Positions 937 to 32,000 of a stretch of DNA of 32,000 nt are shown here, piece by piece. Source of the DNA: Patescibacteria group bacterium. GTDB taxonomy: Bacteria; Patescibacteriota; Patescibacteriia; 2-01-FULL-39-33. The stretch is from contig JBAZMW010000001.1 of the NCBI GenBank assembly GCA_041649575.1, forward strand, positions 30,001 through 62,000, in the 5' to 3' direction. How positions within the stretch are numbered: the first letter of the stretch is position 1; every line of letters starts with the position of its first letter. Made by a program: the position numbers and the translations under genes. Under the pieces are notes generated by a model, which ran no database searches, was not told the origin of the DNA, and saw only the letters and a list, made by a program, of their open reading frames with translations.

Positions 937-995
937 TGCTATTTTTGTCCAGAACTTCAGCTAAAGTTGAAAAAAACAAATTTTTATGGTAATTT
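937..995 (+). promoter_or_regulatory. Candidate leuS promoter region (two weak extended -10-like boxes)
   Basis: TGcTATTTT at 937-945 and TGgTAATTT at 987-995 lie in the 112-nt divergent intergenic region. Neither is a strong match. Confidence 0.2.
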
Positions 996-1020
996 TAAAA
1001 ACATAACGGTTAATTTTACT

Positions 1021-5942: not shown

Positions 5943-6024
5943 GATTCTGTCTCTCCCTCGGGTTTTCAAGGTTCGCACCCTAGTTGTCTTTCCGAGACAA
6001 GTTTACCGCCATGGTAAACGGCTA

Positions 6025-8933: not shown

Positions 8934-8963
8934 GACGCGTGCAAGCGCGTCCCTGTATTTTTT
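8934..8963 (+). terminator. Rho-independent terminator after the lemA-TPM-ORF131 unit
   Basis: Stem GACGCG (8934-8939) / CGCGTC (8946-8951) with a 6-nt loop, followed by a T6 run at 8958-8963. Confidence 0.55.
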
Positions 8964-8973
8964 GGCTGATTTT

Positions 8974-8982
8974 TGCTATAAT
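8974..8982 (+). promoter_or_regulatory. Extended -10 promoter TGCTATAAT for the GIY-YIG/FemAB/MFS/DUF1624/rsmA operon
   Basis: An exact TGnTATAAT lies immediately after the terminator and ~50 nt upstream of the ATG at 9032. Confidence 0.45.
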
Positions 8983-9031
8983 TTATCCTGTTAGACAAAA
9001 TTTTAAATTTTTTATTTGTCTTGCAATATGT

Positions 9032-9286
9032 ATGTATTATGTCTATATTTTGGAATCTATAAAAGATAAAAAATTCTATACTGGCTTTACTAAAAATTTA
9101 AAATTTAGATTTGAGCAACATCAAAAAGGATTGGTTGACTCTACTAAGAATAGGAAACCGTTTAAATTAATTTACTATGAGGCTTGTCTTAACCAGCAGG
9201 ATGCTACTAGGAGAGAAAAGTACCTAAAAACGATTTATGGCAAAAGATACCTCAAGAATCGGCTCGAATCTTATCTAACAGGATGA
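9032..9286 (+). CDS. Small stand-alone GIY-YIG nuclease family protein (84 aa)
   Basis: ORF track starts at 8939, but that extension runs through the terminator and promoter. The ATG at 9032 gives MYYVYILESIKDKKFYTGFTKNLKFRFEQHQKG...REKYLK, a GIY-YIG pattern (YVYIL...YTGFT...R...H). Confidence 0.8.
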   Translation: MYYVYILESIKDKKFYTGFTKNLKFRFEQHQKGLVDSTKNRKPFKLIYYEACLNQQDATRREKYLKTIYGKRYLKNRLESYLTG

Positions 9287-11612: not shown

Positions 11613-11615
11613 TTT

Positions 11616-13533: not shown

Positions 13534-13577
13534 TGTTATAATATAAATAGTACCTTTCCTCTTTTTTGTGTTATACT
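13534..13577 (+). promoter_or_regulatory. Two tandem extended -10 boxes (TGTTATAAT, TGTTATACT) upstream of the 18-kb operon
   Basis: TGTTATAAT at 13534-13542 and TGTTATACT at 13569-13577 lie in the 124-nt AT-rich gap after rsmA. The ATG of the first operon gene is at 13610. Confidence 0.45.
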
Positions 13578-13609
13578 ATTAGTAATCGGATATATTTATT
13601 CACAACCAA

Positions 13610-14545
13610 ATGGAAGGCGACCGACAGGAGGAGTCAATTTTGAGCGATAACTCGGATTTAGAGTTAAAATCCCCATACAAAAGGGGTAATTTTTCTGTTG
13701 TTGGCCGCTCAAAACCAGAAAAAATTATTTCGGTAGCGGTGGTGGTGATGATTTTGGTGGCACTTTTTTTTGCCTATTACCAGCTGGCTAGCAGTTTTAA
13801 GAAGCCTTTTGTTAATTTTAGTCAGTTGGCGGCTAGTAGTAATACTTCCTGTTCTGACGGCAGTTGCTCTGGAGAGAATTCGGCCTCGGAAGAAGAACTA
13901 AAAAATACTGACACAGACGGAGACGGCCTTTCTGATTATGATGAGCTAAACGTTTATAAGACCAGCCCCTACCTAGAGGATACCGATAGCGACGGCACCA
14001 GCGATAAACAGGAAGTGCAGTTGGGGTACGACCCAAACTGTCCCGGTAAGAACCCTTGTTTTGGCTTCAATTTTGATGCTGTCAGCCAAGCCGCTTCGAC
14101 CACGGCGCCGTCTTTTCAGATCATGCCTAGCACCCCAGTTCAGCAAATAACTCCTGATTTTTTGCGTCAGCAGCTGAAAGCCAGCGGCGCTACCGAAGAA
14201 CAATTAGCCCAGTTTAGCGATGCCGAGCTTTTGGCCATGTATGAGGAATATGTGGCCGAAACGGGGAGCCAGAATACCCAAGCGGGACAGGCCGGCAGTC
14301 AGACAAATTCTGGCGGCACTGGCACCAATAATTCTTTGCAGCCTAGCGGCAATATCGATTTAAGCCAGCTTAATGTGCAGTCGGTAGACGATCTTAAAAA
14401 ATTAACAGGGGCGCAAATCAGACAACTAATGATTCAGCAGGGCGCGCCGGCCGAGACCTTGTCCCAAGTCAGCGACGACAAGCTTAAGGAAATGTTCTTG
14501 GCGCAGCTGGAGAGTAAATTAAGCGAGACAAATACTAATAAATAA
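13610..14545 (+). CDS. Membrane-anchored protein with thrombospondin type-3-like Ca-binding repeats and an internally duplicated C-terminal motif (311 aa)
   Basis: ORF track. TM helix IISVAVVVMILVALFFAYYQLA. DTDGDGLSDYDE (13910-13945) and DTDSDGTSDKQE (13979-14014). A duplicated segment: QQLKASGATEEQLAQFSDAELLAMYEEY versus RQLMIQQGAPAETLSQVSDDKLKEMFLAQL. Confidence 0.7.
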   Translation: MEGDRQEESILSDNSDLELKSPYKRGNFSVVGRSKPEKIISVAVVVMILVALFFAYYQLASSFKKPFVNFSQLAASSNTSCSDGSCSGENSASEEELKNTDTDGDGLSDYDELNVYKTSPYLEDTDSDGTSDKQEVQLGYDPNCPGKNPCFGFNFDAVSQAASTTAPSFQIMPSTPVQQITPDFLRQQLKASGATEEQLAQFSDAELLAMYEEYVAETGSQNTQAGQAGSQTNSGGTGTNNSLQPSGNIDLSQLNVQSVDDLKKLTGAQIRQLMIQQGAPAETLSQVSDDKLKEMFLAQLESKLSETNTNK

Positions 14546-14566
14546 TTTTTTGAAGATAAATTTGCC

Positions 14567-17500
14567 ATGAATCCAGGAGAAGGAACAAAAAAGATAACGA
14601 AAAATCTATTTAACAAGGTGATAGTGGTTGGTTTTTTGTTAAGTTTTTTTATTCCAGCTTTGGTTATAGCGCAGGAGGTTGTTCCAGGAATTAGCGGCGT
14701 TAATGTGGCGGATGTGCACGATGAAAATGCTTTTAGGGTGGCTACGGAAGGAGGGGGAGATGCTGTGATTACTTGCAATAATTTTGTCGCTGGCGGTTTG
14801 GCAACATCCGGAGATATAGCCGCTTTAATTAAATGTATAGAAAGCGGGACTAAGGCGCAAAACAAAACGGTTGACAAGAATACCCTCAAGCAACTCAAGG
14901 CCTTGGAACAAAAGCAGCAGCGTGAAGAATTGTTCAGTAAAATGAAGGATGAGCTGAAAAAGAGCATGGCCGGCGCTTTTAAGACCATGCTACGGCAATT
15001 TTCCAAACAATTGGCTTATGACACGGCCGTTTGGGTAGCTTCTGGCGGCAAGGGGCAACAGCCGCTGTTTATGACCGAGGGTATCGGCGCTTATTTGCGA
15101 AATCAGCTAGATAATGCCCTGGGTGTGTTTTTGGACGAACTGGGCCGCTATTATGGCGTGGATGTCTGTACGCCAAATTTCCAGATTAGAGCGCTCCTGC
15201 CCGGTTATTTGGGCAGACCACAGGTGAGTGTTCGCTGTTCTTTTACTAAAATGATCAGTAATTGGCAGAGTGCGGCCCAAAATGCCAGCTTTGCCGTGGA
15301 GTACAGAAGATTTTTGAGGCCAGGAGAAAATGATATTTCTTCGCTACTAATGATTAAAACCGGTTTGAGCAACAAACTAGACCAAGAATTAAGAGATAGC
15401 GTTTTAAATGTTTTATCGAAAGATGGCTGGAAGGATGTTAAAGATTTTGCCGGCTGGGTTTTGACTCCGGGCACCATGGTGCGCAAGGCCACCGAAAACG
15501 CCATTGATCCCCAAAATACTTCGATAGCGGACTACACCTATACCGATACACTCTGGGATTTTATCGAAACTTTTTTGAACACGCTGACGGGAAAACTCTT
15601 AGAAAATTTAATGACTGGCTTTTTCAGCTCCGGCGGCAATACCCAAAATTTCACTACCGGTAATTCAAGCTCCAGTTTATTTAATCCTTTGGCGCAACCG
15701 TTTAGCGAGGGCCAAGAAGGAGCACAGGAAAGATTTCTGAGTCTGGTGGAGGGAAGTTTGCAGGTGGGCGGTGTTTACGATATTTTGAACAAACTGACCC
15801 AATGCCTGGATTCCAGTAAAAGCAATTTAGGGCCGACAGACTGTGTTATTGATCAGGCCCTGGCTCAAGCCATAAGAGAAAAAAAATTAGTCAAAGATTT
15901 ATCCGCGGATATTTTAAATCGTCAGTTCGCTCCCTCTATCTCGGCCAACATCAATCCGCAGACAGTTTTTACCTTAAGAAATATTGTTATCTTGAGAAAA
16001 TATCGAATCGTGCCTGTTGGCTGGGAAGTCGCCGCCAAACTGGTCAATGAAAAAGCCAAACAAATTTATACTTTGCGTCAGTTGATGGAGTGTTATAACG
16101 GCTGTGATCGTTTTGGCAAAGAAGAGGATTTTTGCGGCAATCCGGCCGTGGAAGACACCAGTAGCTGGTGCCGAGGACTGGTTGATCCCAACTGGGTCTT
16201 AAAGGCGCCGGAACTATTCTGCCGGCGGGAAGGATACGGGATCGAAAGCGGCGCCATTGATTCCCAGAACAGTGTCAGTCGGGATAAATATTGCGCCGAC
16301 GAACAGCAATGCATCAAAGAAGATGAAAAAGGCAATTGTTTGGCCTATGGTTATTGCACCAAAGAACGCCGGACTTGGGATTTTAATTCTTCCACCTGCG
16401 ACCCGAAATTCAACACTTGCTTTAATTTTAAATCGCGAACGGGAGCTGCCAACGCTTATTTGGCCAACACCCTTGATTATAGGGATTGCGACGCTCAAGT
16501 GGCTGGTTGTCGTTGGCTGGCTACGGCTTTGAATCCGGTTAGTAATTATTGGTTGAATCTAACCTATAAAACGAACGAGCTGGGCAAACCCAAGGAAGTC
16601 TTAAAGACCTGCAATAATCCTCTGGGTTGCGAGGTGACGGGAGCCAGCGCAGCTGCCGCTGTGACTTATGGCCACAACATTAGCCCCGATGCCAAAACGA
16701 TCCTTTCCCAGCCCTGCAATAAAAGCGCCGGCTGTTCTTACGAAACCAGTAAGTGCACCATTCCTAACGGTGGCGTCACTTGTTCGCCAATAAAAGCAGC
16801 TTGTGACGGCCAAAATAATATTTTGGCCGGTTATAATGGCAATTTTGCCAAATGCGCCTCTTGGAATGCGGAAAAGTGGGAAGAGGGCTGGGGCGGCTCG
16901 GAGAATAATCACCACGCTTGCGTTACTGGTGTTGGCGTGACCGGCAGTGGCATCAAAGACGACAAGGCCCTGGCCAGCTATACCCTGGGCCAGCAGGTAA
17001 GCTCGGCCTTAAGAGACATCTCGGTTGAGCCAAATAAAAAATACATTCTGACTTTTGAAGCCAAGAAAAGCGCTCTGGATGCTTATGGTGGAGTTACTAG
17101 GGGTTCGGTTGCTGTCAAAGTGGAGTTTACCGATACCAGCGGCAAGAAGACCGATCAAGGAGTTGTCTTGGCGGCCGATGATTTGAGCGATACTGGTTAT
17201 CGGACTTTTACTATTGGCAATATCAATAACGGTAATAATGACAAGTTTACCATCAAAGTGACGACCAACGCCGGTTCTTATGGCAGTTTCTATTTTGATG
17301 AATTTATTTTGCGGGAGGTGACGGAGAACTGTTTTGAGACCAACCTGGTTTTGACTAATGGCGTTCAAACGGAAGACGACAGCAACAAGGAAATTTATTT
17401 TGACCGCGACATTCAGTCTTGCGACGCCAAAGACGAGGGCTGTAGCCAATTTATTCGCACCAAGGCCGGGTTGGGCAGCAACTTAATACCCAACAGCGGT

Positions 17501-20500
17501 TTTGAGATTGATGCTGGTGGCGATAATAAACCGGATGGCTGGGTAGAGAGAGGGCTGACCAATATTAGTCTGGACACCAACGATAAATATAAAGCCAAGA
17601 TAGTTTATAGCGCCGAAGGATATGATAAATATCCACTGATACCGGTAGAGGCCGGCGAATATTATGCCATTTCCTTTGATGCCGCTCAAGCTATTAGTGG
17701 CAACAATGACGAAGCTGATTTGGAAATGATTTTTTTGAACAAGGAAGCGGACGCGATTATTGGGGCAACCGGTATAAAAATCGACAAGACAAATTGCGCC
17801 CAGACCGGAGACAACACCATTACTTTGAGAAATTTGCCTGCAAATATGAATATGCAGAGGCAGTCTTGCTACTTTTTGGTGCCGGCCGGGGCCAGAGTTA
17901 TGGGTTATAAGCTGTTTTCGGCCACCGCCAGTGGAGTTAATTTTATTGACAACATAAAATTGGAAAAAATAAATTATTTCAGCTTGAACGCCTCGGTTTA
18001 TACACCCTATACGCCTTCGGAACGACCAGTAAGCCAGTTGGCTTTTGTCAAAAAGGCTCCTGCTTATTACGGCTGTTATAAAACCGGCAGTCTTTGGCCG
18101 CAGAGCGAGACTGAATTGGAAAGAGTTTTGCTTGGCCGCAGTGCGGCCTGCGCTAATTTTGCCAGCGTTTGTATCAGAGATGAAGTTGGTTGCGAACGTT
18201 ATAGTCCGCTAAATAAGGATCCGGCAGTGCCGGGCAAAATCAACGCGCTTAATATCTGCCCGGCGGAGTGTGTCGGCTACCAGCTGTATCGCAAAGAGAA
18301 AACTTATTTCGAAAGCGTAAGCTACGAAAAATTCATTGCCGACAAAAAACCGCAGTATTGCTCGGCCGCTTACGCCGGTTGTGATGAGTTTACCAATTTA
18401 GACGAAGTGGCCAAGGGCGGCGAGAGCAGGGAATACTATTCGCAACTGCGCGTTTGTCAGCAACCGGCCGCCGACGCCAGCGATGCCACTTATTACACCT
18501 GGGAGGGCAGCGACACCACCGGCTATCAGCTAAAAACTTATCAGTTGAAAAAAAGTCAGACGGACAGCTTTGATACTAATGCTCCCTGCACTGTTTTGGA
18601 TTATCCGGCCAGTTTAAATGGCAAGAACCAGTGTAATGACCTGAAAGATGACGGAACCAACAGCGTTGGTTCGGTTTCATTGCCGGCCGGCTACAGTAGT
18701 CTAAAGGGTTATTTAACGGTTTTACAGGGTTATACCGATACCAGTAGCAGCGATCCGAATTTACCCACTATTGTTAACTCGGGAATTTTGGACGAGTTGC
18801 ACGAGTTTGGCATCTGCGCCAAACAAGAGCTCAACGGCATCGTTTACAATCGAGGCACGATGGATGATGCCAGTGACGATATTTACATTTATGCCAATGC
18901 CGATTGCCGCGAGTTTTATGATGGCAGCGGCCAAGTCCATTATCGGCTGCTTTCCAAGGCAATCTTTTCTTCCAGCGAGTGCCATCCTTATCGTCGCAGC
19001 CAGGTTCAGACCGATACGGCCGAAGCCCAAGCCGATTGCCGAAATTCCCAAGGCTATTGGAATGCTAACGGAGAGTGTATTTATATGGCGATACCCGGCC
19101 AGGGAAAGACTTGCCCTGCCAGCGCCAAGGGTTGCCGTCAATATGTCGGCAATCAAGGCAACAACGTCCGTTTGAAGTTTTTTGATAATTTTGAGAGTAA
19201 TCTGGGCGCCTGGCAAGGCGGCGGTGTTCTGGCCATGGAAGCCACTAATCCGGGAGGCAAATCATTAAAGAAGGCGGGCGGTGGCGAGATTAGCCGGCCG
19301 GTTGCCACAGTCAAAAATAAGGCTTATATCTTAAGTTTTTGGGCCAAGGCTTCGGCCGACGCCGTTGTGCTGGATGCAATTAAATTTAAAGGAGCGGAAA
19401 ATAACTCCGACAATTATTTTGCCGAAAGCGACAGCGACGCCGACAATATCCCGCAAGCAGTTTTAAATACCACTTGGCAGAAATATGACTTAGGTCCGGT
19501 TTTTGTCACTTGGGACGAAAGAGCCGACGAAGCGCTAGAAATCAAAGCGCCGGCCGGAGTCGATGTCTTTTTTGACAACATAATTCTAAAAGAAGTTCAG
19601 CAAAACGTTTACCTGATCGCCAATACTTGGTTTACGCCTTTTGCTTGCGATAACATACTGGAAACACCCTTTGGGTCAGCCGGTGATTCCAATAATCCGA
19701 CTCGTGACAGCCAAGGAGAGATGCTCGGCTGTCAGGCTTACAATGATCGATCCGATCAACCCTGGTATTTGAAATCATTTTCCAGATTATGCCGCGAAGA
19801 CGCTGTGGGTTGCGAGGCCTTAATTAATACCTTTAACTCCGATTCTCCTTGGGGCAAGGAATTTAATAACGAAGACTTGGAAACGCATGATGACGTGACG
19901 GTCCAGAGCGATCAGGCGGTCTATTTGGTCAATGACAATCAATATGCTTGTCAGGCCGAGGATAAGGGTTGCACGGCTTTCGGCTTGCCCAGCGTCACCA
20001 AGTATGACGAAACAATAGGTTACAGCACTGTGTATTTGGAAAACGTTCCTGACCGTTATAGCTTTGATCTGTGCCGTTACCAAAATTTATGGTGCGAGGA
20101 ATTCTCCAGTGCCGATGCCCGCGAACTGTCTTATTTTAAGGATCCCAGAGACAAGCTGTGCGAGTACACCGCGATTTCCGGCAAGAATTACAGCAACTGG
20201 TATGCCAAAGGGACTAATAATCCCTGTCTGACCACCGCCACGCAAACGATTGGTCTGGGTTCGGCCGATGAGAAGCGGCAGCCAATCGGCTGGTATGACA
20301 ATAAAACAGAGACGGAGGTGGCGGATTATAAGGGTTGGGCCGGCCTGTGTCCGGCCGAGCAGAGCTCTTGCACCGAATATATCGATCCGCTGACCGAGGT
20401 TTATGAGGGTCTCTTTAATAAGGAGGAAAACAGTTTCAAAAACTGTGCCGGCGAAACTCCAGGAGCCGAGCAAAACAATTGCGGTTATTATGTGTTAGAA

Positions 20501-23500
20501 CTGGAGGACGAAAATCTTTATACCATCTCGATCAAGAGAACCAGCTCCGGCAATGTCGCCACCCAGCTAGTTTGCGATAATGAAATTTGGTCGCCGGATA
20601 AGAGTTTGGATGTGTCTGGCTCTAGTAAATTAATTTTAAACAGAGACAACGTCGGCGGCGATAAGCAGGTTAGCGGTAGATTTTATCTGGAAAGTACCGG
20701 CGCCGGCCAGGCCAGAGTCAATTGTCGCATTTACGATCCTGGTTTTGACGGCGAAGAGATCGAAGTGGTTAAGGCCGGGGTTTATTATCAATTGGCCAAA
20801 GCGGTCAATCGCGCCGCCTGCAACGGTTTGGTGGATATAGATAGCGGTTGCGTTTTGTTCAATGAGAGAGGAGAGATGAATTACTCCAAGCAGGGCGTGG
20901 AGAGAGTCCGCGATTATCTTGACTTTGACGCCGATGAAACTTTCAATTTGCAAATCAAAGCTGCCAGTAAAAATCCACAGCCGCCATTTTCAGCGATTTT
21001 GCCAGGCCAAAAAAATTCTAATTCGATCATTAAAGTGTCGCCAGACAGGGAATGCAGCGGCTGGCTGTTTTGCACCACTTACGAAAAAGCCAATCCCGAA
21101 GATACGGATTTGGCCTTTGGCAGTCAGGATAAGTGTTTGGAAATAGGCCTCTGCAGTCGCTTTGATAGCAAGGGAAATTGTTTGAAATATTCGCTGGGCA
21201 AAAAAGAAGCCCTGTCTACCAGCACCCCCGATTTTCAAAACTTAACGGGATACTCCATCAGCGGTTATTACCCGACAGATCTGATGGAACAAATCGGCAA
21301 TGCGGCCAACTTGCCCAATGGTAATTTTGAATCAACTTACTCGGGAACCAAAGAACCTCTTGGCTGGTATATCGGCGGCAGTCATTATGATTCGGACAAC
21401 ATCAAACAGCCAGGACAAGTCAGCGGCTGGGGCGATTATCGTTTTAGCATCGAACGGGATTCTGCCAATCGTAGGGAAGGCTCTGGTTATTTAAAATTAA
21501 ACGGAGCCTATGAGGCCGAATCGGAACTGGTAGATGTTTTCCCCAATGTTGATTACACTATTTCGGCCTGGGTAAACACGCTTAACCTGCAGCCCACTTC
21601 GACGCAAGCGGAAATTCTGGTCAGGGAGCTAAACGCCAGTGGCAATACTATAAAAAATTCCAACTGCTCGGCCGTGGCCGGCTGTTATGAAGTCAAAATC
21701 AATGGCATCTCCTGGTCTTTGTATGGCGGACTGAAATTAAAAGCCGGCCAGCCCTGGCTTAGAGTCAACCAGCGGATAAAAACTATGCCGGAAACTTCAA
21801 GATTGCAAATTAAACTGTTAAATTTTCTTAGTAGCCAGGATTATGTAAATTGTCGCGACCAGAACGCAGCCACCTATTGCAAAACGGGGGGCTACACTTT
21901 CTTTGACGATTTACAGATAAACGCCGCCCTGAAAGTTAATGACAAAGAGAACATAAAAAGAGACTGTCGCGCTTATCCCGAGCAGGATTCATTGGCCTGT
22001 CGGTATTTCAAAGATAATCAGTTTTTTTATGGCTGGTCCGGCTACTGCCTGACTTATGATCCGCTAAACTCTCGTTCCTGTCTGCAGTGGTGGCCGGTCG
22101 ACAATATAAAAGGGGAAGTGGAGGACGAGGTTTCCGGTTATGACAACAGAGTTCCTTTGTATTATTGTCTGTTAACCGAATTTGAAAGAGAATTGAAAGA
22201 AGTAAGTACCGATGTGATACAGGTTCAGGAAGCGGTCGGCGGCGCTATGCCGGTTGCCTCTCAGGCCCAAGGAGTGGCGGGAACAATTTTGGATTTTTTA
22301 GAATTCATTCTTAATATTGTGGGCGATGTCTTTCTGGGCGGAACTAATAGCGGAACAATCATAACCGACCTGATAGCCGGCGGCTTGCAGACTTTTGCCG
22401 GCATTGATGTCGGGTCGAGCGGCTCTTCGTCTTCAAAATCGAATATGCCTCAATGCGAAAGACTAAGCTTTGAGGATTTGAAATTCGATCCGACCACAAA
22501 AAGCTTGAATTCCTGGGTTGCCAGTATCACCGGGAATAATTCCAGAAACGTCGATGCCAAGTATCTGAAGCCGATAAGTTTGTATAATGTAGTCTATATC
22601 ACCCTGGATACCGGCTATGGCGGCGGCGGCGGCGTGGAATGCGAAGATCAGGGCGGGCATAATTTACAAAAAGTAAAATACACGGAAAATTTTATTCTTA
22701 GAGGTCTGTATAAATTGGTTGTCGGCGGTACTAGCAGTATAACTACCGAAGATTATGGTTATGTTTCTCCTGGCGATGGTACGGCCGGCCTGGATTATAG
22801 CGACAAGACTTATTGCGCGGGTTTTGTGACCTTTTTTGACAAAGACGAGAACGGTCATCGCAAAGGAGAAATAAAAAACATGATAGCCTGCGCTCAGGAT
22901 ACAGGGGAGTACACCCATCAGGACACCTTTAACTTTAAGTTTAAGATAGGCTACATGACAGACAAGCAGGGCCCGGCTTGCCAAATATTGGCTCAAGTGG
23001 TGACTCCGATGGGCAATAACAAGGCTTGGAGCAGAAGGGTGGCCAAGGGCAGTATTTTCACTATGCCTGGTCTTGGCACTTCGTATAATTCCGATTATCC
23101 TCCTTATGGCGCGGTGGTGCCGCCGGAGCCGGCGCATTATCCCGAGGTTTGGGATACCGACTTAACTCAAAAAGATAAGCAAAAATTATATCATTCCGCG
23201 CCGGAACTGGAAAGCCAAAAGCCCTATCAGGCCAGGGCGGGAGAAGTGTTTAGTTGCGTCAATTATGTCAATGATTTGCCAGGTTATGATGGAACAATGG
23301 GAGCGTTAAGAAGTATTTTTGGAGTCGCTTCCAGCTGGGCTTATAAGGTGCCTTGTTTTGAGGGCTGCCTGAAAGGCATCAGAACCGACAATGCCTGGCA
23401 GGGACTAACTTCCATAACCCAGTCGGTGCTGTGTGTTTGGAGACATTGCACCAACGCCTGCAATTTCATCGGCCGTTGCAGTCAGTCGGGCAGTGTTTGT

Positions 23501-26164: not shown

Positions 26165-26200
26165 GTTTTATTTTTTTAAATAAGCGAGGTTTTTAAAAAA

Positions 26201-29200
26201 ATGACAGTCAGAAGAAAAAAATTGATTTTAATTATAACAGTCGTCTTGTTTTTGGCTGGAATTTTTTTGTTGAGCAGTAATATTTCTTTTGCCCAGGAAA
26301 CCAACTCCGACTCCAATATTAATGGCAATATCAGTTCGGATTCCGATGTCGAAGCCGACACCAACATTAATGCGGATTACAACCCCAAGCCAGCCGAGAA
26401 TGCCGGCGCACCAGCCAATGACGGCAAGATTGCCGGGTTCATTAATTGGATTTTGTATTACGTGGCTTCGTTTTTTGGCTGGCTGGTGGGGCTGATAGTC
26501 AATGTTTTGGTTAATAAGGTGGTGGTTTTTAATGATTTTTTGAATGTCCGGCTGGTCAAGGAGGGCTGGCGCATTGTGCGCGACATCTGTAATAATTTTT
26601 TTATCGTCATCTTGCTGGTGATCGCCGTGGGCACTATTTTGCGGGTACCCAACTATCAATACAAACAATTGTTGCCAAAACTTTTGATAATGGCGGTGCT
26701 GATTAATTTTTCCAAGATGATTACCGGCGTCCTCATAGATTTTTTTCAGATTATTATGGTGTTTTTCGGCGGAGCCCTGGTAAAAGAAAATGCCGCCGGA
26801 GTGATTTTGGCCAGTGTGGGGTTGTATAAGCTATATTTATTGGGACAAAACCCAGGGGGACAAATTCTTGGGAACGAGAATTTGCAGGATTGGGATATTA
26901 CTATCGCTCTGTTTTTTGCCATTGTAATCTCCATTGTCGCCTGCGTGGCGATAGGAGTGACTATGATCATTCTGGTCTATCGTATTGTAATGTTGTGGAT
27001 TCTGGTGATTTTGTCGCCGGCCGCTTATTTTCTTTCTTCCTTTCCCAAAGGCCAGCAGTATGCCGGCATGTGGTGGAGCCAATTCGCCAGCAACCTGGTA
27101 GTCGGGCCGGTGCTGCTGTTTTTTCTGTATTTGTCCTTTTTCAGCGGTTACCGCGATGTCGGCGGCGTAGAAAACACTCGGGGAGGGACGGTTACTATCC
27201 CTAGTTCTGCTACTACCCCAGAAGAGCTTAAAAAAAGCGCTAAAGAAGCTAGGACTGATACTGGCCAAAAAGGTTATATAACCGGTTCTACAAATTCACT
27301 CATGGCCACGGATCAAGGATTTTTTGATTATTTAATTATTATTGCCCTGATGATTGCCGGTCTGGCCGTAGCGCAAAAAGCCGGCGCCGCCGGCGGACAA
27401 TGGGCGGGCAAGGGCGTGGCCAGTTTGCAAAAATGGGGGAAGAGAGCAGCCAAGCTGCCTTTAGGTGCAGCCAAGTATACAGCCAAGGAGACTGGCCGAA
27501 AAGTCGCTGGAATTCTAAGTTATGAGACAAAAAGTGGCAAACGACTCCCTTTTATTGGTCAATGGGCTGGTGATATAAAAACTAAGATGGAAGATGATAT
27601 TGTAAAACGGCGTACTGCTATAATGAAAAAAATAGGCATGGGGGACAAGACAAAAGAATGGATAGCCGGCAAGAAGGAGGATTTCAAAAAGGCAAGATAC
27701 CAAGTTTCTGGTAGGCTTGTTCAAGCGCCAGTTGGGGCCGCTGTGCATGGCGCCGGTGGAGCTGCTTTGGGAGCTACTATTGGAGGAGTTGCCGGAGGAG
27801 TTATTGGTATAATGACAGCCAATCCTCTATTAGCCTTGGGTGGGGCCAAGGCTGGTGCTTGGATAGGCGGTGCTATGGGAGGATTTGGCGGTATATTAGG
27901 AGGCTTAGGAAAAAAACCTTTACAATTTACGGTTAAGGCTGCTGAATTAGACACGAAGACGGTAAAAAATGCAAAGAGAAAGGCCGATGCCTTGAATGAT
28001 ACCACCGTGCCAGTTGGTGGCACGGATGAAAGTGGTCTAATTGAGGCCAGAAGTTCATGGAAAAATACCGGGGCGTATATTGGAGCTGGCGGTATTTTAT
28101 CTAAGGAAAATAAAAAGATGCTTGATAATATAAATGACGACGGTCTAGCGCATTTATCGCAAGCCATAGATGCTGAAATAGACCCAACTAAGAAAAGTGA
28201 TTTAAAGGAAGCTTTTACCAAAATGTTGGCTGCTTATAAAAAAGGCGGCGGATCTAATCTTAGTACCATACAGTCATTTCTCGGTGGCGGAAGGAATGTT
28301 TTGGGTATAAGCGAAACAGCTCATATGGATCCTTTAATAGCAGCTAATAAGGTAGACGTTGCTTCCCGTCGTACCGGTACCGAGAAGTTCAGAGAACAAC
28401 GCGGTGACTTAAAGGTAGCTCGGTTTAGTCATCTTAAAGATAACACAGAGGCTGGTGTTGATTTCAGGGATTTGTTTGAAGGCAATTCAGAGCTTCTAAG
28501 TCAAATCAAGGCGCAACAACCGGATTTTGACATCAGTCAAAGCGGTATTCATATCGAAGGCAAGGAAATGACGCAAAAAGTCTCACAAGCCATGGCTGTC
28601 TTGATAGACAAAGAATTGGCCAGTCTTTCTCATAACAGCGCTATTGCTTCGACCGGTCAGAAGGAGCAAATAGGCAGAAGAATGGGAACGCTAAGAACGG
28701 CCAGAGAGCAACTAACGTCTGGCAGATTGCAGCAGTTGCAATTATGGAATAGCGGCCTGGAGAATGAGACCGGCGAAGCGGCAACTACCATTTTCCATGA
28801 AAGGATTCATAAAGCAGGTGTTAAGAGCGAAGTTAAGGCCGAGGAAGGGGCGCGGTTTATTAGGGAAAGGCATTTAGCGGGTTTGCACGAAGAGATCGCC
28901 AGGGAAATGGTAGCCATGGAAGGCGAAAGGGGTGGAGATGATTACACTATGGACGAGGTGATGGCCAGAGTCAAAGAAAAGCATGGCACCAAGGATAAAG
29001 TGAAAAGATTAATTGCCAGAGAACAAGAAGCGGGAGTCGCTCCGGGCAAGACTGGCGCTAAAGAGCCCAAGCCAACCAAAACTATTACCGAAGCCCCCGA
29101 GCTGGAAAGAGCAATACAAGAGCTGACCGAGGCTTTAACCAAAACTAGCAGAAGCGAGGCAGGCGGTGTCGGGCCGGGCGGCGCTTTGCAGCCTGATTTG

Positions 29201-29392
29201 CAAAGAGAAGCGGCTGCCAACGCCAATTTTTTCAGGTTGCTGCAAAGCTTGAGAGAAATCGAAAAAGGCGTAGCTGGCTTGGGGGACAAAGAAGCAAAAG
29301 ATGCTGTCGGCGTGGTGGTCGGGCTGGGGTCAGATCCAGTGCCTTTGGACGCCCAAGTGACGGCCGAGACTGTTAAAAATTCTTTAAGTTAA
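26201..29392 (+). CDS. VirB6/TrbL-like polytopic membrane protein with a ~670-aa C-terminal extension (1,063 aa)
   Basis: ORF track. Signal/anchor LILIITVVLFLAGIFLLSSNISFA, then roughly eight TM helices by eye up to ~27385. These include ...GWRIVRDICNNFFIVILLVIAVGTIL...LLIMAVLINFSKMITGVLIDFFQ..., which resembles TrbL/VirB6-type proteins. The extension has a glycine-zipper segment (27724-27915). Confidence 0.55.
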   Translation: MTVRRKKLILIITVVLFLAGIFLLSSNISFAQETNSDSNINGNISSDSDVEADTNINADYNPKPAENAGAPANDGKIAGFINWILYYVASFFGWLVGLIVNVLVNKVVVFNDFLNVRLVKEGWRIVRDICNNFFIVILLVIAVGTILRVPNYQYKQLLPKLLIMAVLINFSKMITGVLIDFFQIIMVFFGGALVKENAAGVILASVGLYKLYLLGQNPGGQILGNENLQDWDITIALFFAIVISIVACVAIGVTMIILVYRIVMLWILVILSPAAYFLSSFPKGQQYAGMWWSQFASNLVVGPVLLFFLYLSFFSGYRDVGGVENTRGGTVTIPSSATTPEELKKSAKEARTDTGQKGYITGSTNSLMATDQGFFDYLIIIALMIAGLAVAQKAGAAGGQWAGKGVASLQKWGKRAAKLPLGAAKYTAKETGRKVAGILSYETKSGKRLPFIGQWAGDIKTKMEDDIVKRRTAIMKKIGMGDKTKEWIAGKKEDFKKARYQVSGRLVQAPVGAAVHGAGGAALGATIGGVAGGVIGIMTANPLLALGGAKAGAWIGGAMGGFGGILGGLGKKPLQFTVKAAELDTKTVKNAKRKADALNDTTVPVGGTDESGLIEARSSWKNTGAYIGAGGILSKENKKMLDNINDDGLAHLSQAIDAEIDPTKKSDLKEAFTKMLAAYKKGGGSNLSTIQSFLGGGRNVLGISETAHMDPLIAANKVDVASRRTGTEKFREQRGDLKVARFSHLKDNTEAGVDFRDLFEGNSELLSQIKAQQPDFDISQSGIHIEGKEMTQKVSQAMAVLIDKELASLSHNSAIASTGQKEQIGRRMGTLRTAREQLTSGRLQQLQLWNSGLENETGEAATTIFHERIHKAGVKSEVKAEEGARFIRERHLAGLHEEIAREMVAMEGERGGDDYTMDEVMARVKEKHGTKDKVKRLIAREQEAGVAPGKTGAKEPKPTKTITEAPELERAIQELTEALTKTSRSEAGGVGPGGALQPDLQREAAANANFFRLLQSLREIEKGVAGLGDKEAKDAVGVVVGLGSDPVPLDAQVTAETVKNSLS

Positions 29393-29395
29393 ATT

Positions 29396-30331
29396 ATGGC
29401 TAATAATTACATTGCCGAATGTTTGACAAAATTTAGAGCCCTGCCTCGAGAAATCCAGGAGGCGGTGGGCGGTTTTGAGGCCTTGAAAACCATTCAGGGC
29501 CTGGAAGAGACCCATAGAATCAAGCTGGGGCTGATGGTCATTTTAGTGGCGATTGGCGAATTAAAAATGGAGGAAATAGAGGATTATCTGATGGAAAAGT
29601 ATAATTTTGGAAAATGGGAAGCGCAGGAGATCAATGAGATTTTACAGCAAAGCATTTTTGAACCGGCTCTTGAAGTTGCTTTGGCAACAATGCCTTTAGC
29701 CGGCCAGTCTGGACGAGATTTAAGTTTGCCCGAGCAGAAGAAAATTTTGACTGATTTATTCAGAGAAAGACTAAAAGAGGTCTTAACCGGCGATGGTGAG
29801 CTGGTTCAAGAAGTAAACGATATGATTTTTGATATTTTGGGTCGGGAAATGGGCGACGAGAATAAAATGTTTGAAAAAGATTTGGAAAAAATTCTCTATC
29901 TCAACCAAGAAAAATTGACCAGTCAGAGCATTAATATCGACGGCCGGCCTCTCGAGCCCACGGTGGCTAATTGGCTTAGGGATTTTATTAATAGAAACGG
30001 CACTGCATTTTTTTCCAACCTGGTTTTGTCGCAATATCTGGCCAACTCGGAAAACGGCAACCGTTTGAATCAAGGAGAAAAGATGCTTCTGGGCAAATTG
30101 TTGGTTTTGTATCGCAATTTAAAATTTTTTCCAGACAACCTGACTAATTTGCCCCGAAACCAATGGGAGATCATTCCCATTAGCCGCCATAAGTCCGAGC
30201 CAATAGCTTCGGCTGGCGCTGCCGCTGGCGGCAGCAGAGCTGTGCCCCAAGAAGAGCCCTCTCCGGCTTGGCAGGGGCTGTCGGCGATAGAAAAGAAAGC
30301 TTTAATGGAAGAGGAAAGTTCCAGAAAATAG
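29396..30331 (+). CDS. Hypothetical protein (311 aa), paralogous at its N-terminus to the next ORF
   Basis: ORF track. Starts 3 nt after the preceding stop. The N-terminal ~80 aa (LTKFRALPREIQEAV...LEETHRIKLGLMVILVAIGELKMEEIEDYL) align with ORF 30360. Confidence 0.6.
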   Translation: MANNYIAECLTKFRALPREIQEAVGGFEALKTIQGLEETHRIKLGLMVILVAIGELKMEEIEDYLMEKYNFGKWEAQEINEILQQSIFEPALEVALATMPLAGQSGRDLSLPEQKKILTDLFRERLKEVLTGDGELVQEVNDMIFDILGREMGDENKMFEKDLEKILYLNQEKLTSQSINIDGRPLEPTVANWLRDFINRNGTAFFSNLVLSQYLANSENGNRLNQGEKMLLGKLLVLYRNLKFFPDNLTNLPRNQWEIIPISRHKSEPIASAGAAAGGSRAVPQEEPSPAWQGLSAIEKKALMEEESSRK

Positions 30332-30359
30332 CCAAAAGAATCGGAGAAATAAAAATTTT

Positions 30360-31829
30360 ATGGATTCTAGTTTACAAAAATTCAATCAGTTGCCGGTTTT
30401 CGTCAAAGAAAAATTGTCAGCGCTAGCCGTTTTGAAGGCGGTGGAAGAATTGGAAAAAAAATACCGGATAAAACTGGCTTTATCGCTTATAAAAATGGCG
30501 GTGGGCGATTTGACCATAGCCGATTTTAGCAGTTATTTGACTAATGTTTCAAAACTAGAGGCCGGTTCGGTCAGAGAAATTAGCCAAAAATTCAAAGAAT
30601 TTTTGGCTGAAGCGGGGTTAAGAGTCAGCGAAGTTGAAAGGGAAGCCGCTCTTGGCCGGCCAGCCAGGGAAGCAGTGTTTGCTTTTTCCACTGAGGACGA
30701 ACATGAGGTTGATAATTTCAGACAATTGGCCGATAGCGGAGAAAAAATTCACGATCATGATTATTTGGCCGGCGTAGTTATATCGCGGTTTGGCTTTTTG
30801 GAAACCGATGAAGTCATAAAAAAAAGATTGCATAATATCGTGACAGCCCGGTTAAGAGATATAAGAGACGATTTGGAAACCCTGGAGAGTCTGCAAAAAA
30901 GTCGTAAAATCGGAGGTTTGGGTTTTACCGAGGAACAGAGCCGTCGCCTGCTGGGCTTGATAAAAAATGGCATAAGTGGCCAATGGCCGAAAAATTCGCC
31001 AAACGTCAAAGAGCCGGAGACTTCGGGGCGTGAACCCAGTGCTTCAGTGGCGGCTTCGTCAAAAGCGGAATTAGAAAAAAAAGTTTTGACTTTGCAAGAA
31101 AAGAAAAAGCAGGAAGAGACTTCGGTCGGTGCCGGAGACTATCCGAAGGTCAGAGATTCTTTGGCCGCCAAAGCGCTGGATTTATTGACGGATAAACGGC
31201 CAATCTCTCAAAGAGGGGGCAGGCCGCGAATTGAAGAAGAAGACGGATTGCCGGTGGTAGTTTTGCCGGAGGAAGAGGAATTAATGATTAAGCCGCTAGT
31301 GATTGATTTACAAAAAAAACCTCGAGGCAAGGTAGAAATTAAAGAGCCGCAGTTACCGCCAAAAGCGTCGGAAAATATCAAAGCTTTCAGACCGCTGGGG
31401 CCTCAACCCAGCCCCTTTGCCAGTCCGCGGCCGGTGGTTAAAAAGGTTTTTAAAACCAGTCTTAGCAGTCGGCCGAATTTGGACGATGTAAAATTTGCTC
31501 CCAAGTTGATGGGGCCGGTAGAAGAGCTGGAGAGCATGACTCTCATTGATTTTCGTCGTTTAGGCCAGGAGCCGAAAGAAATCGCTCGCAAAATCAAAGA
31601 AAAAATCGATTTGCTAGAAAACGAATCTTATAGCAAAAAACTTGAAGGAGTCGAGGCCTGGCAGAAAAACGAGGTCAACAGGTTTTATCGTCTTTTGGGT
31701 CAGGCCAGTCTGGCGGCGGGGCAGGGCATTGAAGAGATAATCAGCGAGCGGCTGGCCAGCGGCAAGCCGACTCTGACTGTCGAGGAATTCGAATCGGTGA
31801 TGGAGCTTAACAAAGATTTGCGTTTCTAA
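30360..31829 (+). CDS. Hypothetical protein (489 aa): N-terminal domain paralogous to ORF 29396, charged/Pro-rich middle, conserved-looking C-terminal domain
   Basis: ORF track. LQKFNQLPVFVKEKL...LEKKYRIKLALSLIKMAVGDLTIADFSSYL aligns with the preceding ORF. The C-terminus is ...LIDFRRLGQEPKEIARKIKEKIDLLENESYSKK...TLTVEEFESVMELNKDLRF. Confidence 0.6.
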   Translation: MDSSLQKFNQLPVFVKEKLSALAVLKAVEELEKKYRIKLALSLIKMAVGDLTIADFSSYLTNVSKLEAGSVREISQKFKEFLAEAGLRVSEVEREAALGRPAREAVFAFSTEDEHEVDNFRQLADSGEKIHDHDYLAGVVISRFGFLETDEVIKKRLHNIVTARLRDIRDDLETLESLQKSRKIGGLGFTEEQSRRLLGLIKNGISGQWPKNSPNVKEPETSGREPSASVAASSKAELEKKVLTLQEKKKQEETSVGAGDYPKVRDSLAAKALDLLTDKRPISQRGGRPRIEEEDGLPVVVLPEEEELMIKPLVIDLQKKPRGKVEIKEPQLPPKASENIKAFRPLGPQPSPFASPRPVVKKVFKTSLSSRPNLDDVKFAPKLMGPVEELESMTLIDFRRLGQEPKEIARKIKEKIDLLENESYSKKLEGVEAWQKNEVNRFYRLLGQASLAAGQGIEEIISERLASGKPTLTVEEFESVMELNKDLRF

Positions 31830-31862
31830 TAATTAATTTTTTTGTTAAGATAAGTATAAGCC

Positions 31863-32000
31863 ATGGAACAAATAGTAGTACCACAATTTTTAGACGTCGA
31901 AGACAAGATTATCGGTCCGATAACCGTGCGTCAGTTTATCGAAATGATGATTGGCGGTTTGCTTTGCTTCATCTTTTATAAACTGTTTGATTTTTCACTT
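31863..32000 (+). CDS. PrgI-family (VirB3-like) small T4SS membrane protein, truncated by the window edge (first 46 codons)
   Basis: Not in the ORF track because no stop lies in the window. The ATG at 31863 gives, by hand translation, MEQIVVPQFLDVEDKIIGPITVRQFIEMMIGGLLCFIFYKLFDFSL. The pattern VP..ld.EDKi.GP.T.RQF followed by a TM helix is how I remember PrgI-family N-termini. Confidence 0.6.
   Translation, partial: MEQIVVPQFLDVEDKIIGPITVRQFIEMMIGGLLCFIFYKLFDFSL

Follow-up and report, generated by a model that had tools for sequence, protein, structure and literature searches.

Gene organization and genomic setting of the cluster

The window (the whole stretch of 32,000 nucleotides that was analysed) is part of a Patescibacteria (CPR) chromosome of class ABY1, from a relative of the Buchananbacteria and Falkowbacteria, the names carried by the related genomes. 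Six open reading frames on the plus strand (13610–14545, 14567–26164, 26201–29392, 29396–30331, 30360–31829, and 31863 onward) are separated by only 21, 36, 3, 28, and 33 nt, reproducing exactly the coordinates and tight spacing originally predicted; all window features described below lie on this strand. On the extended contig, the cluster continues past the window end to 11 genes in total with gaps of at most 36 nt, adding a full PrgI/VirB3, a split VirB4 ATPase (a TrsD-like protein and the ATPase), a VirB8-sized bitopic protein, and ComF. The window region constitutes the 5' two-thirds of this co-directional cluster of ~22.6 kb, and ComF is followed on the contig by tRNAs, RecG, RadA, and a gene for a VirB2-like pilin. 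Domain searches identified no relaxase, coupling protein, replication, or integrase domains in the window, in agreement with the original prediction, and no mobility genes are present in the 10 kb beyond it. The codon usage of the cluster is native: as had been claimed, it matches that of the housekeeping genes (RSCU r = 0.72–0.80; 0.59 for the TSP3 gene), but the description of these codons as A/T-ending was overstated, since GC3 is about 0.5.

Two extended −10 promoter boxes, TGTTATAAT at 13534–13542 and TGTTATACT at 13569–13577, precede the first gene. As proposed from the sequence, these are the sole plus-strand matches to the box motif in the window, and both strands together contain 3 matches compared with 0.43 expected. 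Among the relatives, a TGnTATAAT-type box (pattern TG.TA[TA]A[ACT]T) was found in 60 of 60 homologous spacers between KsgA and the TSP3 gene, compared with a background density of 0.09 per kb. The first-listed box per region is a perfect TGnTATAAT in 59, and locus L085 has TGTTATATT together with a perfect TGTTATAAT. Within 150 nt upstream of VirB6, such a box is present in only 3 of 100 relatives, and the only conserved extended −10 box is the one upstream of the TSP3 gene. Terminator-like sites on the plus strand are absent from every gene junction, which bears out the predicted lack of hairpin terminators; their total number is 25, compared with 24.2 expected from shuffles. An imperfect hairpin followed by a U-tract is located at the 3' end of the second gene (26111–26185, −25.1 kcal/mol; not better than shuffles, z = −1.66), and this weak element could act in read-through attenuation.

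The giant secreted protein and its TSP3 neighbour

The first gene (13610–14545) encodes a bitopic protein of 311 residues with one transmembrane helix (residues 39–57) and predicted extracellular, calcium-binding TSP3 repeats (Pfam TSP3_bac, E = 2.7e-8). It is nearly always paired with the gene for the giant protein, being located directly upstream of it in nearly all loci whose sequence extends far enough.

The giant protein itself (14567–26164) comprises 3,865 residues. Its 134 cysteines (3.47%) justify the earlier description as cysteine-rich when compared with 0–1.3% in the other proteins of the secretion cluster, from the TSP3 protein to the 189-residue protein described below; ComF, the next protein, has 2.7%. 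Of these cysteines, 59 are shared by at least 80% of the full-length sequences compared (23 orthologues plus the window protein, 24 in all), and the spacing C-x6-C occurs 16 times compared with 4.6 ± 2.0 in shuffles. Residues 1–36 (14567–14674) form a Sec-type signal peptide with a cleavage site predicted from the sequence (ALVIA/QE). The segment 18–36 is the sole hydrophobic segment detected by the transmembrane scan, and a comparable K-rich and hydrophobic leader starts all orthologues. Neither an LPXTG motif nor a C-terminal transmembrane helix was found, and the protein has no cell-wall or membrane anchor of these kinds.

The most conserved part of the giant is an N-terminal domain at about residues 150–650 (15014–16516), which was delimited from the conservation profile and alignment and serves as a family signature. 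It is predicted to be mostly helical, its AF2 model is of low confidence (pLDDT 36), and no relatives were found in the PDB, in Pfam, or among plasmid-encoded proteins. As a query, the domain retrieved 1,791 cluster representatives, mostly of 2,300–3,865 residues, and, of the 150 family matches listed, only a few do not have it at the N-terminus. The giants constitute a large unannotated family of proteins of 2,300–3,900 residues that are predicted to be secreted, cysteine-rich, and sugar-binding; the window protein has no NCBIfam match.

The term "CBM-repeat" used in the original prediction was too strong, in that Pfam recognizes one CBM_4_9 module, the family profiles recognize two CBM-like modules, and a third copy is weak. 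CBM-like β-sandwich module 1 (residues 971–1135; 17477–17971) was identified through family profile A9, which hits hyaluronate lyase at its carbohydrate-binding module (4d0q_A, E = 8.6e-5); the window segment searched by itself gave no match. In module 2 (residues 1528–1677; 19148–19597), Pfam CBM_4_9 matches residues 1540–1640 with E = 2.8e-8 (34.7 bits; cut-off 25.9), and the family profile matches the laminarinase CBM 1gui_A (9.8e-5) and xylanase C 4xup_A (1.2e-3). The weak extra copy (residues 787–862; 16925–17152) was found with an HMM derived from the orthologues' CBM_4_9 regions (i-E = 5.6e-5, score 9.6), and the segment that holds it is present in only about 30% of orthologues.

Comparison of the C-terminal region with the 23 orthologues delineates a "WGD...YHxY...DNWG" domain at about residues 3190–3300 (24134–24466), PKD-like by motif only, in which Trp3207, Asp3209, His3233, Asp3285, and Trp3287 are invariant. 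This domain forms the C-terminus of the orthologues. The window protein continues with an extension of about 545 residues (3320–3865; 24524–26161), which lacks a Pfam match and is absent from 23 of 23 aligned full-length orthologues (alignment occupancy 0.04–0.15; tblastn matches to relatives end at about residues 3300–3330). Variable insertions and the C-terminus of the giants differ by lineage.

The type IV secretion core

The assignment of the third gene product (26201–29392; 1,063 residues) as an extended VirB6/TrbL-like protein is supported by its homologues and fold, although the protein has no Pfam match of its own at E ≤ 1, TrbL included. It has 325 homologues, some with PF04610 or PF19590. 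Twelve of 31 aligned homologues match TrbL, and in 4 homologues the match to the transmembrane domain exceeds the gathering score. About eight hydrophobic segments are present, with the polytopic domain at about residues 75–395 (26423–27385), and the protein also has a signal-like N-terminus and a glycine-zipper stretch; its C-terminal half is hydrophilic and coiled-coil-like, and matches coiled-coil proteins only. The AF2 model (pLDDT 80.4) has chains of the R388 VirB5–VirB6 stalk (PDB codes 7o3v, 8rt9, and 8rtd) as its five best Foldseek matches in the PDB, through its transmembrane domain; their probability is up to 0.96, but they are weak by E-value (0.025–0.07) and TM-score (0.22–0.37).

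Two soluble proteins of unknown function are encoded between VirB6 and PrgI. The first (29396–30331; 311 residues, no transmembrane helix) has no Pfam, NCBIfam, or PDB relative and is present in 57 of 80 related loci. The second (30360–31829; 489 residues) has no relative in Pfam (at threshold), NCBIfam, the PDB, or plasmids, and is found in 62 of the 80. Their description as paralogues holds for a common N-terminal domain of 91 residues (BLASTP E = 2e-11; hhalign 98.65%, E = 5e-16), but nothing is shared beyond it.

The last frame of the window (31863–32000) contains the first 46 codons of a PrgI/VirB3-like gene that runs past the window. For this fragment the Pfam score is 23.4 bits (E = 8.8e-5), short of the cut-off of 27, and the full protein of 148 residues with two transmembrane helices (11504–11950 of the extended contig, L001) reaches 35.7 bits (E = 1.3e-8), which settles the proposed PrgI identity. 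The VirB4-type ATPase looked for on the strength of the original prediction lies directly downstream, beyond the window, as a TrsD-like N-terminal piece (L001 11964–12647; E = 2.3e-8) and an ATPase of 634 residues (L001 12651–14555). The latter matches NCBIfam conju_CD1110 (338.5 bits; cut-off 325) and Pfam P-loop_TraG (E = 3.6e-29), with Walker A ATSGAGKS and Walker B IMIVDE. A bitopic, VirB8-sized protein of 189 residues (L001 14583–15152) and ComF (L001 15183–15857) follow.

This core is a Patescibacteria-type, Gram-positive-like (MPF-FATA-related) chromosomal T4SS of the kind described by Wang et al. 2023 (PMC10633639) and Quinonero-Coronel et al. 2025 (PMC12102498). As for the published systems, the window cluster lies on the chromosome with neither a relaxase nor a coupling protein in its vicinity, has a Gram-positive (MPF-FATA-like) VirB4 with a separate TrsD-like N-terminal protein, and includes PrgI/VirB3, VirB6, and a nearby VirB2-like pilin; the association with comF, recG, and radA reported for ABY1 is exactly matched in the contig. 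The original proposal of a chromosomal, non-conjugative T4SS in an episymbiotic bacterium of reduced genome was therefore right, but already published. Unlike in those accounts, where the giant, its TSP3 partner, and the two soluble proteins are not mentioned, these genes are part of the window cluster, and VirB6 is an extended 1,063-residue form without a match to the Pfam model. As far as we have found, the upstream pair of TSP3 protein and giant has no published description.

Relation of the giant protein to the secretion system

Of 57 loci anchored on VirB6, 45 have a giant homologue upstream of it, and of 26 loci anchored on the giant, 24 have VirB6 downstream. The predicted synteny of giant, VirB6-like, and PrgI genes is thus conserved, and the new observation is a giant family just upstream of the T4SS in most relatives sampled. 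Judged by synteny alone, it is plausible that the giant is a dedicated extracellular component of the T4SS. The adjacency in both anchoring directions, a −10 box upstream of the TSP3 gene but rarely of VirB6, and junctions free of terminators would argue for such coupling.

A different reading, which we consider a real possibility if on the improbable side, is that the TSP3 protein and the giant make up a surface module of their own (a general adhesin, or an envelope or S-layer-like structure) that neighbours the T4SS only through conserved ABY1 gene order, and that the T4SS functions independently of this module. Upstream of the TSP3–giant pair, the housekeeping gene KsgA is as regular a neighbour as VirB6 is downstream. 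Of 75 loci, only 19 have the VirB6 start within 100 nt of the giant stop, and 26 have more than 1.2 kb between the two. Furthermore, no giant is present within 10 kb upstream in 12 of the 57 VirB6-anchored loci, where the block VirB6–311aa–489aa–PrgI–TrsD–VirB4–189aa is intact. One of the relatives (L019) has MetRS and a Por_Secre_tail protein between giant and VirB6, and in another (L013) ATP-synthase subunits and GroEL are encoded upstream of VirB6 in the place of the giant, with no giant within 10 kb. Because KsgA is equally syntenic, and in some relatives MetRS, ATP synthase, and GroEL genes intervene between the giant and VirB6 or occupy the giant's position, synteny is weakened as evidence for coupling, and a functional coupling as adhesin or tether is therefore something that we infer. 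Unrelated giant or cysteine-rich surface proteins are also common in CPR genomes (PMC4736985, PMC11809585). An independent module fits less well with the adjacency seen in both anchoring directions, with the window's own subclade, where the intergenic spacers are at most 36 nt long and contain neither a promoter box nor a scored terminator, and with the location of the only conserved extended −10 box.

In virB operons, virB5 is immediately upstream of virB6. The giant, a protein with a Sec signal peptide, is encoded in the corresponding position, and it could be imagined as a structural, VirB5-like part, with the helical N-terminal domain docking on the VirB6 platform and perhaps riding to the tip of a VirB2-like pilus, and the rest forming a long, disulfide-braced, lectin-bearing arm. 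This would be consistent with the conservation and predicted helicity of the N-terminal domain (from a low-confidence model), with the VirB5–VirB6 stalk chains as best matches of the VirB6-like model, and with the occurrence of VirB2-like pilins in Patescibacterial T4SS, for which no VirB5 is reported. We nevertheless consider it unlikely: the giant exceeds VirB5 about 15-fold in size, has no detectable VirB5 similarity and none to a Pfam T4SS family (E ≤ 1), a PDB chain, or a plasmid-encoded protein, the N-terminal model is unusable, the Foldseek scores are weak, and the synteny caveats apply equally. The original suggestion that the giant might be T4SS cargo, a secreted effector, is highly improbable, as adjacency and likely co-transcription are all that speak for it, while the protein has a classical N-terminal Sec signal peptide and 59 conserved cysteines that imply folding outside the cytoplasm, no coupling protein is nearby, and the C-terminus, where T4SS signals usually reside, is unique to the window genome.

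Our best explanation, to which we give about an even chance, is that the published T4SS core is combined with the giant as a surface part for host contact or tethering, not as cargo. The conserved extended −10 promoter at the head of the cluster would drive the TSP3 and giant genes. The giant would be exported by Sec, stabilized by many disulfides, and equipped with at least two CBM-type sugar-binding modules, and it may be exposed at the cell surface, where the TSP3 protein and/or the VirB6 platform are candidates for anchoring it. By binding glycans on the host surface, the giant could then establish a contact, or serve as a tether, allowing the T4SS channel and pilus to act on the host cell. 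The equal synteny of KsgA, the gaps above 1.2 kb, the giant-less loci, the lack of an anchor in the giant, and the hairpin at its 3' end count against this explanation.

In the prgQ operon of Enterococcus pCF10, the surface and adhesion proteins PrgA, PrgB, and PrgC are encoded first, followed by the channel genes PrgD–PrgL, among which PrgH is VirB6-like, PrgI VirB3-like, PrgJ is VirB4, and PrgL VirB8-like. The claim that the accessory set belongs to no known T4SS architecture is fair by homology but overlooks this analogous layout: in both systems, which are monoderm and have no outer-membrane core, a long co-directional operon opens with genes for exported surface proteins, and VirB6-, VirB3-, VirB4-, and VirB8-like genes come after them. 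Functionally, the giant might correspond to the surface adhesins at the head of such Gram-positive conjugation operons. Unlike PrgB and PrgC, to which it has no sequence relation, the giant is three times larger, cysteine-rich, lacks an LPXTG sorting signal, and contains CBM modules; the window system is not conjugative, and pCF10 has no counterpart of the soluble pair.

Large cysteine-rich extracellular proteins are described in CPR Peregrinibacteria (PMC4736985), and giant FhaB/DUF2341 proteins without full-length homologues in the ABY1 bacterium Patescibacterium danicum (PMC11809585). As for the window giant, these are very large, signal-peptide-bearing, variable proteins of reduced-genome CPR bacteria, some of them cysteine-rich, for which attachment to other cells is proposed. 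No FhaB, DUF2341, or FG-GAP domain was detected in the giant, and unlike the P. danicum proteins its family is widespread. In the portions of both papers available to us no link to a T4SS is drawn, and we count the Peregrinibacteria proteins against coupling. A cultured relative has essential polysaccharide-binding surface proteins (PMC10633639), and no PrgB-type adhesin was detected for the Patescibacterial T4SS (PMC12102498). The giant is a candidate for the host-contact part that this secretion system is said to lack.

Type IV secretion genes at and beyond the window end

The original prediction placed the last genes of the window in a type IV secretion system (T4SS)-like operon and expected a VirB4 ATPase directly downstream. 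The downstream genes were read on a 116-kb metagenomic contig that encodes the proteins of the window (L001, whose coordinates are used for this part); an NCBI Patescibacteria MAG encodes these proteins as well. A 634-aa VirB4 ATPase is encoded there at L001 12651–14555, matching NCBIfam conju_CD1110 (E = 8e-101, 338.5 bits, the cut-off being 325) as well as the Pfam families P-loop_TraG (E = 3.6e-29) and AAA_10 (E = 8.9e-12), and the Walker A (ATSGAGKS) and Walker B (IMIVDE) motifs are intact when read in the sequence; the main expectation is thus borne out. The assignment of the truncated gene at 31863 to PrgI (PF12666; VirB3-like) holds as well: the 46-aa fragment in the window is sub-threshold by itself (23.4 bits), whereas the full-length protein of 148 aa (L001 11504–11950), which has two hydrophobic segments, passes the profile threshold (E = 1.3e-8, 35.7 bits versus 27). 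The gene 13 nt downstream of PrgI encodes a TrsD-like protein of 227 aa (L001 11964–12647), corresponding to the N-terminal domain of VirB4 as a separate protein. It matches NCBIfam TrsD (E = 2.3e-8) and the N-terminal region of VirB4_plasma (E = 3.5e-11), both under the curated full-length cut-offs, and has a precomputed Pfam match to PF26593 (TraC-like). Downstream of VirB4 is a bitopic protein of 189 aa with one N-terminal transmembrane helix (L001 14583–15152). It is kept in 51 of 80 loci. In size and topology it resembles VirB8 or PrgL; with PrgL (7aed_A in the PDB) its family profile gives only a weak match, at E = 5.4. The next gene encodes ComF (L001 15183–15857; NCBIfam comF, E = 5.6e-32, 111.2 bits, below the cut-off of 233.55), and is followed by genes for tRNA-Ser(GCT), tRNA-Ser(TGA) and tRNA-Arg(GCG) at L001 16031–17085, where the transcription unit probably ends, and by RecG, RadA and a gene with a T4SS_pilin match. 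The putative pilin gene (261 aa, precomputed PF18895) begins about 6.7 kb past virB4 in the downstream direction and is encoded on the opposite strand, at the L001 edge. An uncharacterized 170-aa ORF lies among the tRNA genes.

The 1,063-aa protein whose gene (26201–29392) precedes PrgI by 2.5 kb within the cluster had been proposed to be of VirB6/TrbL type. Its own sequence has no Pfam match at E ≤ 1, and hence the TrbL (PF04610) threshold is not reached directly. Among its 325 homologues, some carry precomputed TrbL-family matches. Pfam TrbL is matched by 12 of 31 aligned homologues (E ≤ 0.01), and four homologues pass the gathering score of 25.9 bits exactly over the transmembrane domain (P0014, 29.2; P0016, 35.6; P0017, 27.0; P0042, 26.1 bits), a domain over which they are 38–50% identical to the window protein. 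Membership of the VirB6/TrbL family is therefore transitive rather than direct. The protein has about eight hydrophobic segments, and with 70 homologues AlphaFold2 gave a confident model of residues 56–440 (pLDDT 80.4, pTM 0.76). The five best Foldseek matches of this model in the PDB are chains of the R388 VirB5–VirB6 stalk complex (probability 0.75–0.96), although the matches are weak (E = 0.025–0.07, TM-score 0.22–0.37). The C-terminal 600 residues match only coiled-coil proteins, and the transmembrane domain has no tblastn match among 72,556 plasmids. We read the protein as an “extended VirB6”, a class already known. What stands of the proposal is a polytopic protein of this type by neighbours, homologues and model fold.

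Neither the window nor the 10 kb beyond it shows a relaxase or coupling protein, in agreement with the proposal of a chromosomal, non-conjugative system. The upstream neighbours are LeuRS, KsgA, FemAB and other housekeeping genes, and codon usage is native. These flanks and the codon usage, together with the lack of mobility genes in the stretch searched, led us to reject a mobile-element origin. Chromosomal, relaxase-less, Gram-positive-like T4SSs with a split VirB4, PrgI, VirB6 and VirB2-like pilins are known in Patescibacteria (PMC10633639, PMC12102498). They are distributed across the phylum and, in the class ABY1, associated with comF, recG and radA (PMC12102498). In Southlakia epibionticum, the only Patescibacterium that is genetically tractable, the T4SS is an essential system (PMC10633639). 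The window cluster is like the MPF-FATA-like T4SS of the Patescibacteria clade in its VirB4, its separate TrsD-like protein, the lack of a relaxase or coupling protein nearby, and a putative pilin gene near virB4. The T4SS interpretation of the original prediction is thus correct, with VirB4 and PrgI present and no relaxase or coupling protein within the range searched, but it is not new, having been published already. What is new, to judge from the literature searched, is the conserved association of the ABY1 T4SS with the family of the 3,865-aa secreted, Cys-rich giant protein (14567–26164), its TSP3 partner (13610–14545) and two soluble proteins. No adhesin is reported for the system in PMC12102498, where the giant neighbour is unmentioned; reviews describe the role of the T4SS in Patescibacteria as completely unknown and likewise report no adhesin.

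Elsewhere in the window, two minus-strand ORFs of 351 and 188 aa at 4360–5978 form a compositionally foreign island (GC 0.52–0.59, GC3 0.58–0.75, RSCU correlation with the neighbours 0.05–0.13). Neither has a Pfam match at threshold, and the 188-aa ORF has one weak sub-threshold match. The 351-aa protein carries a signal peptide, and its last residues, LQFLLRF, resemble an outer-membrane beta-barrel signature, which is odd in a presumed monoderm CPR genome; the island could reflect horizontal transfer or an assembly chimera. The 1,100-aa leucyl-tRNA synthetase (967–4269) carries an alpha/beta serine-hydrolase domain (aa 550–718; Pfam Ser_hydrolase, E = 6.4e-17) inserted between its editing and anticodon-binding parts, and a 115-aa GIY-YIG nuclease-domain protein (E = 5e-16) is encoded at 8939–9286 amid housekeeping genes.

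Layout, transcription and conservation of the cluster

The six plus-strand ORFs lie where they had been placed (13610–14545, 14567–26164, 26201–29392, 29396–30331, 30360–31829 and 31863 onward), with the claimed intergenic gaps of 21, 36, 3, 28 and 33 nt. Including the L001 genes downstream, eleven genes run in one direction with gaps of at most 36 nt. A consensus scan confirmed that the junctions hold no terminator-like plus-strand site; in the region as a whole, 25 such sites were found against 24.2 expected from shuffles. The sole terminator candidate, missed by the scan, lies at the 3′ end of the giant gene (26111–26185), where an imperfect hairpin precedes a U-tract. Its energy of −25.1 kcal/mol is not significant compared with shuffles (z = −1.66); it might attenuate read-through into the T4SS genes.

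The two promoter-like boxes, TGTTATAAT (13534) and TGTTATACT (13569), are real, are the only plus-strand matches in the window to the box motif originally noted, and are extended −10 elements. A TGnTATAAT-type box occurs in the homologous KsgA–TSP3 spacer of 60 of 60 related loci (among L023–L162), the first-listed match being a perfect TGnTATAAT in 59; in the remaining locus, L085, TGTTATATT comes first and a perfect TGTTATAAT is also present. The background frequency of such boxes is 0.09 per kb, and this difference suggests that −35-independent extended −10 promoters are the norm in the lineage. Within 150 nt upstream of VirB6, TGnTATAAT is found for only 3 of 100 VirB6 genes. A box upstream of every TSP3 gene examined, and rarely before VirB6, argues in favour of co-transcription. 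Two perfect TGnTATAAT boxes inside the VirB6-like coding region (27616 and 27805, plus strand) could drive the T4SS genes further downstream as internal promoters, or they could be chance matches, about 1.7 being expected per 18 kb.

Conservation was assessed in 80 VirB6-anchored loci from species-representative genomes, many of them named Buchananbacteria or Falkowbacteria. The order in relatives is (KsgA)–TSP3–giant–VirB6–311 aa–489 aa–PrgI–TrsD–VirB4–189 aa–(ComF). The giant gene lies upstream of VirB6 in 45 of the 57 loci that have at least 5 kb of upstream sequence; on giant-anchored metagenome contigs VirB6 lies downstream in 24 of 26 informative loci, almost always with KsgA–TSP3 upstream of the giant. 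The synteny proposed for the giant, VirB6-like and PrgI genes is thus kept in relatives, though it is not absolute, and MetRS, ATP-synthase subunits or GroEL are found between the giant and VirB6, or replacing the giant, in some of them. The distance from the giant stop to the VirB6 start is at most 100 nt in 19 of 75 loci, 401–1,200 nt in 24 and more than 1.2 kb in 26. In both loci read from the 401–1,200 nt group, the gap contains a two-helix gene of about 205–221 aa, also found in one locus without a giant. In the two Falkowbacteria-named loci read, this gene (204–221 aa) is directly upstream of VirB6 (L078 9184–9849; L013 9236–9850, where it is present despite the absence of the giant), and its product has a long hydrophilic leader and, towards the C-terminus, two hydrophobic helices. 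It has no Pfam match at threshold and no equivalent at the corresponding position of the window, and about 20 other loci have gaps of a fitting size (about 550–870 nt). The gene may encode a pilin-like protein or some other membrane component of the T4SS. In another Falkowbacteria locus (L019 5135–6391), a 419-aa protein encoded directly 3′ of the giant gene has a Por_Secre_tail match (E = 1.7e-14), the C-terminal sorting domain of type IX secretion, which is unexpected in a phylum thought to have neither an outer membrane nor T9SS.

The giant protein and the accessory proteins

The only hydrophobic segment of the giant protein is its N-terminal signal peptide. Examined as a possible PrgB-type protein, it matches no adhesin domain of Pfam or NCBIfam, and it lacks both an LPXTG motif and a hydrophobic anchor at the C-terminus. 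Fifty-nine of its 134 cysteines are shared by at least 80% of the 24 full-length proteins compared (23 orthologues plus that of the window), and many cysteines belong to a repeated C-x6-C-x2-[FYW] motif; the C-x6-C spacing is seen 16 times, compared with 4.6 ± 2.0 in shuffles. The original prediction described a carbohydrate-binding module (CBM)-repeat protein. Pfam CBM_4_9 finds one module, at aa 1540–1640 (E = 2.8e-8, 34.7 bits versus a cut-off of 25.9), and a profile of 23 full-length giants matches CBMs in the PDB at residues 971–1135 and 1528–1677, the module at 971–1135 being found by this profile only (E = 8.6e-5). A third copy is weak, and the fourth (about aa 2290–2480) is a motif recognized by eye, since single-sequence PDB searches with aa 2270–2490, as with aa 940–1120, gave nothing significant. 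BLASTP of the protein against itself detects no repeats within it (E ≤ 1e-3). The last domain of the orthologues is PKD-like (“WGD...YHxY...DNWG”), and aa 3320–3865 (24524–26161), a C-terminal extension of about 545 aa, are absent from all 23 aligned full-length orthologues. This extension has 11 cysteines within aa 3601–3700 and no Pfam match.

With the conserved N-terminal domain (about residues 150–650), 1,791 cluster representatives were retrieved from 1.84 billion, 1,086 of them at E ≤ 1e-30; searches of another index with the N-terminal 620 aa and with a 24-sequence profile gave only four fragments. Nearly all full-length matches are 2,300–3,865 aa long, and the domain lies within the first ~100 residues in all but a few of the 150 matches listed. 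Nothing similar to it was found in Pfam, NCBIfam, the PDB or, by tblastn, 72,556 plasmids. Beyond the single CBM_4_9 module the family is uncovered by Pfam and NCBIfam models, and no description was found in the literature searched. The large Cys-rich or giant surface proteins known from CPR genomes belong to other families, and the sources consulted give them no T4SS link.

The 311-aa TSP3 protein combines a single transmembrane helix with calcium-binding TSP3 repeats. The two soluble proteins of 311 aa (29396–30331) and 489 aa (30360–31829) have only a 91-residue N-terminal domain in common (hhalign probability 98.65%). They have no NCBIfam or PDB relative and none in Pfam at threshold, their family profiles, like that of the giant N-terminal domain, match nothing in the PDB at E ≤ 1, and the 489-aa protein has no tblastn match among the 72,556 plasmids.

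Relation of the giant protein to the secretion system

We infer, with moderate confidence, that the giant protein most likely serves the T4SS in host contact or as an adhesin. Surface adhesins are encoded ahead of the channel genes in the pCF10 operon, the nearest architectural analogue of the cluster, but the likeness of the giant to PrgB-type adhesins is one of position and presumed role only. The main rival, a less probable but serious one, is that the giant is an independent surface protein whose gene has stayed beside the T4SS through inherited gene order. KsgA is equally syntenic, so that conserved order by itself cannot prove shared function, and housekeeping genes separate the giant from VirB6 in some relatives; the promoter boxes, for their part, favour co-transcription of the giant with the T4SS genes.

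A more specific version of the host-contact role, which we consider quite unlikely in full, would make the giant and TSP3 proteins the missing extracellular arm of the ABY1 T4SS. The N-terminal domain would dock on the VirB6 platform in place of VirB5, which holds the corresponding position in Gram-negative systems, and the rest of the protein, braced by disulfides and studded with lectin modules, would reach the host cell surface as a long tether or conduit. Host DNA or other macromolecules would be taken up by the relaxase-less T4SS by way of this contact, and imported DNA might be handed to ComF, RecG and RadA encoded next door. That the giant is itself a VirB5-like structural part is a minority reading of low probability. 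The stalk chains matched by the VirB6-like model belong to a VirB5–VirB6 complex. Giant residues 1–520 have no Pfam match at E ≤ 1, and the family profile A4 has none at E ≤ 1 in the PDB, where TrwJ is among the entries; an AlphaFold2 model of residues 1–660 from five sequences has a pLDDT of 36. A role as T4SS cargo is unlikely and was set aside in view of the Sec signal peptide and the cysteine conservation.

The extracellular arm, if true, would add a new class to the surface components of T4SSs, one present in more than 1,000 lineages. Should the adjacency reflect inherited gene order only, the cluster would amount to one known T4SS beside one more CPR surface protein. Encoded at the head of the ABY1 T4SS in most of the relatives sampled, and with putative sugar binding, the giant protein is a concrete candidate for the host contact of this machine.
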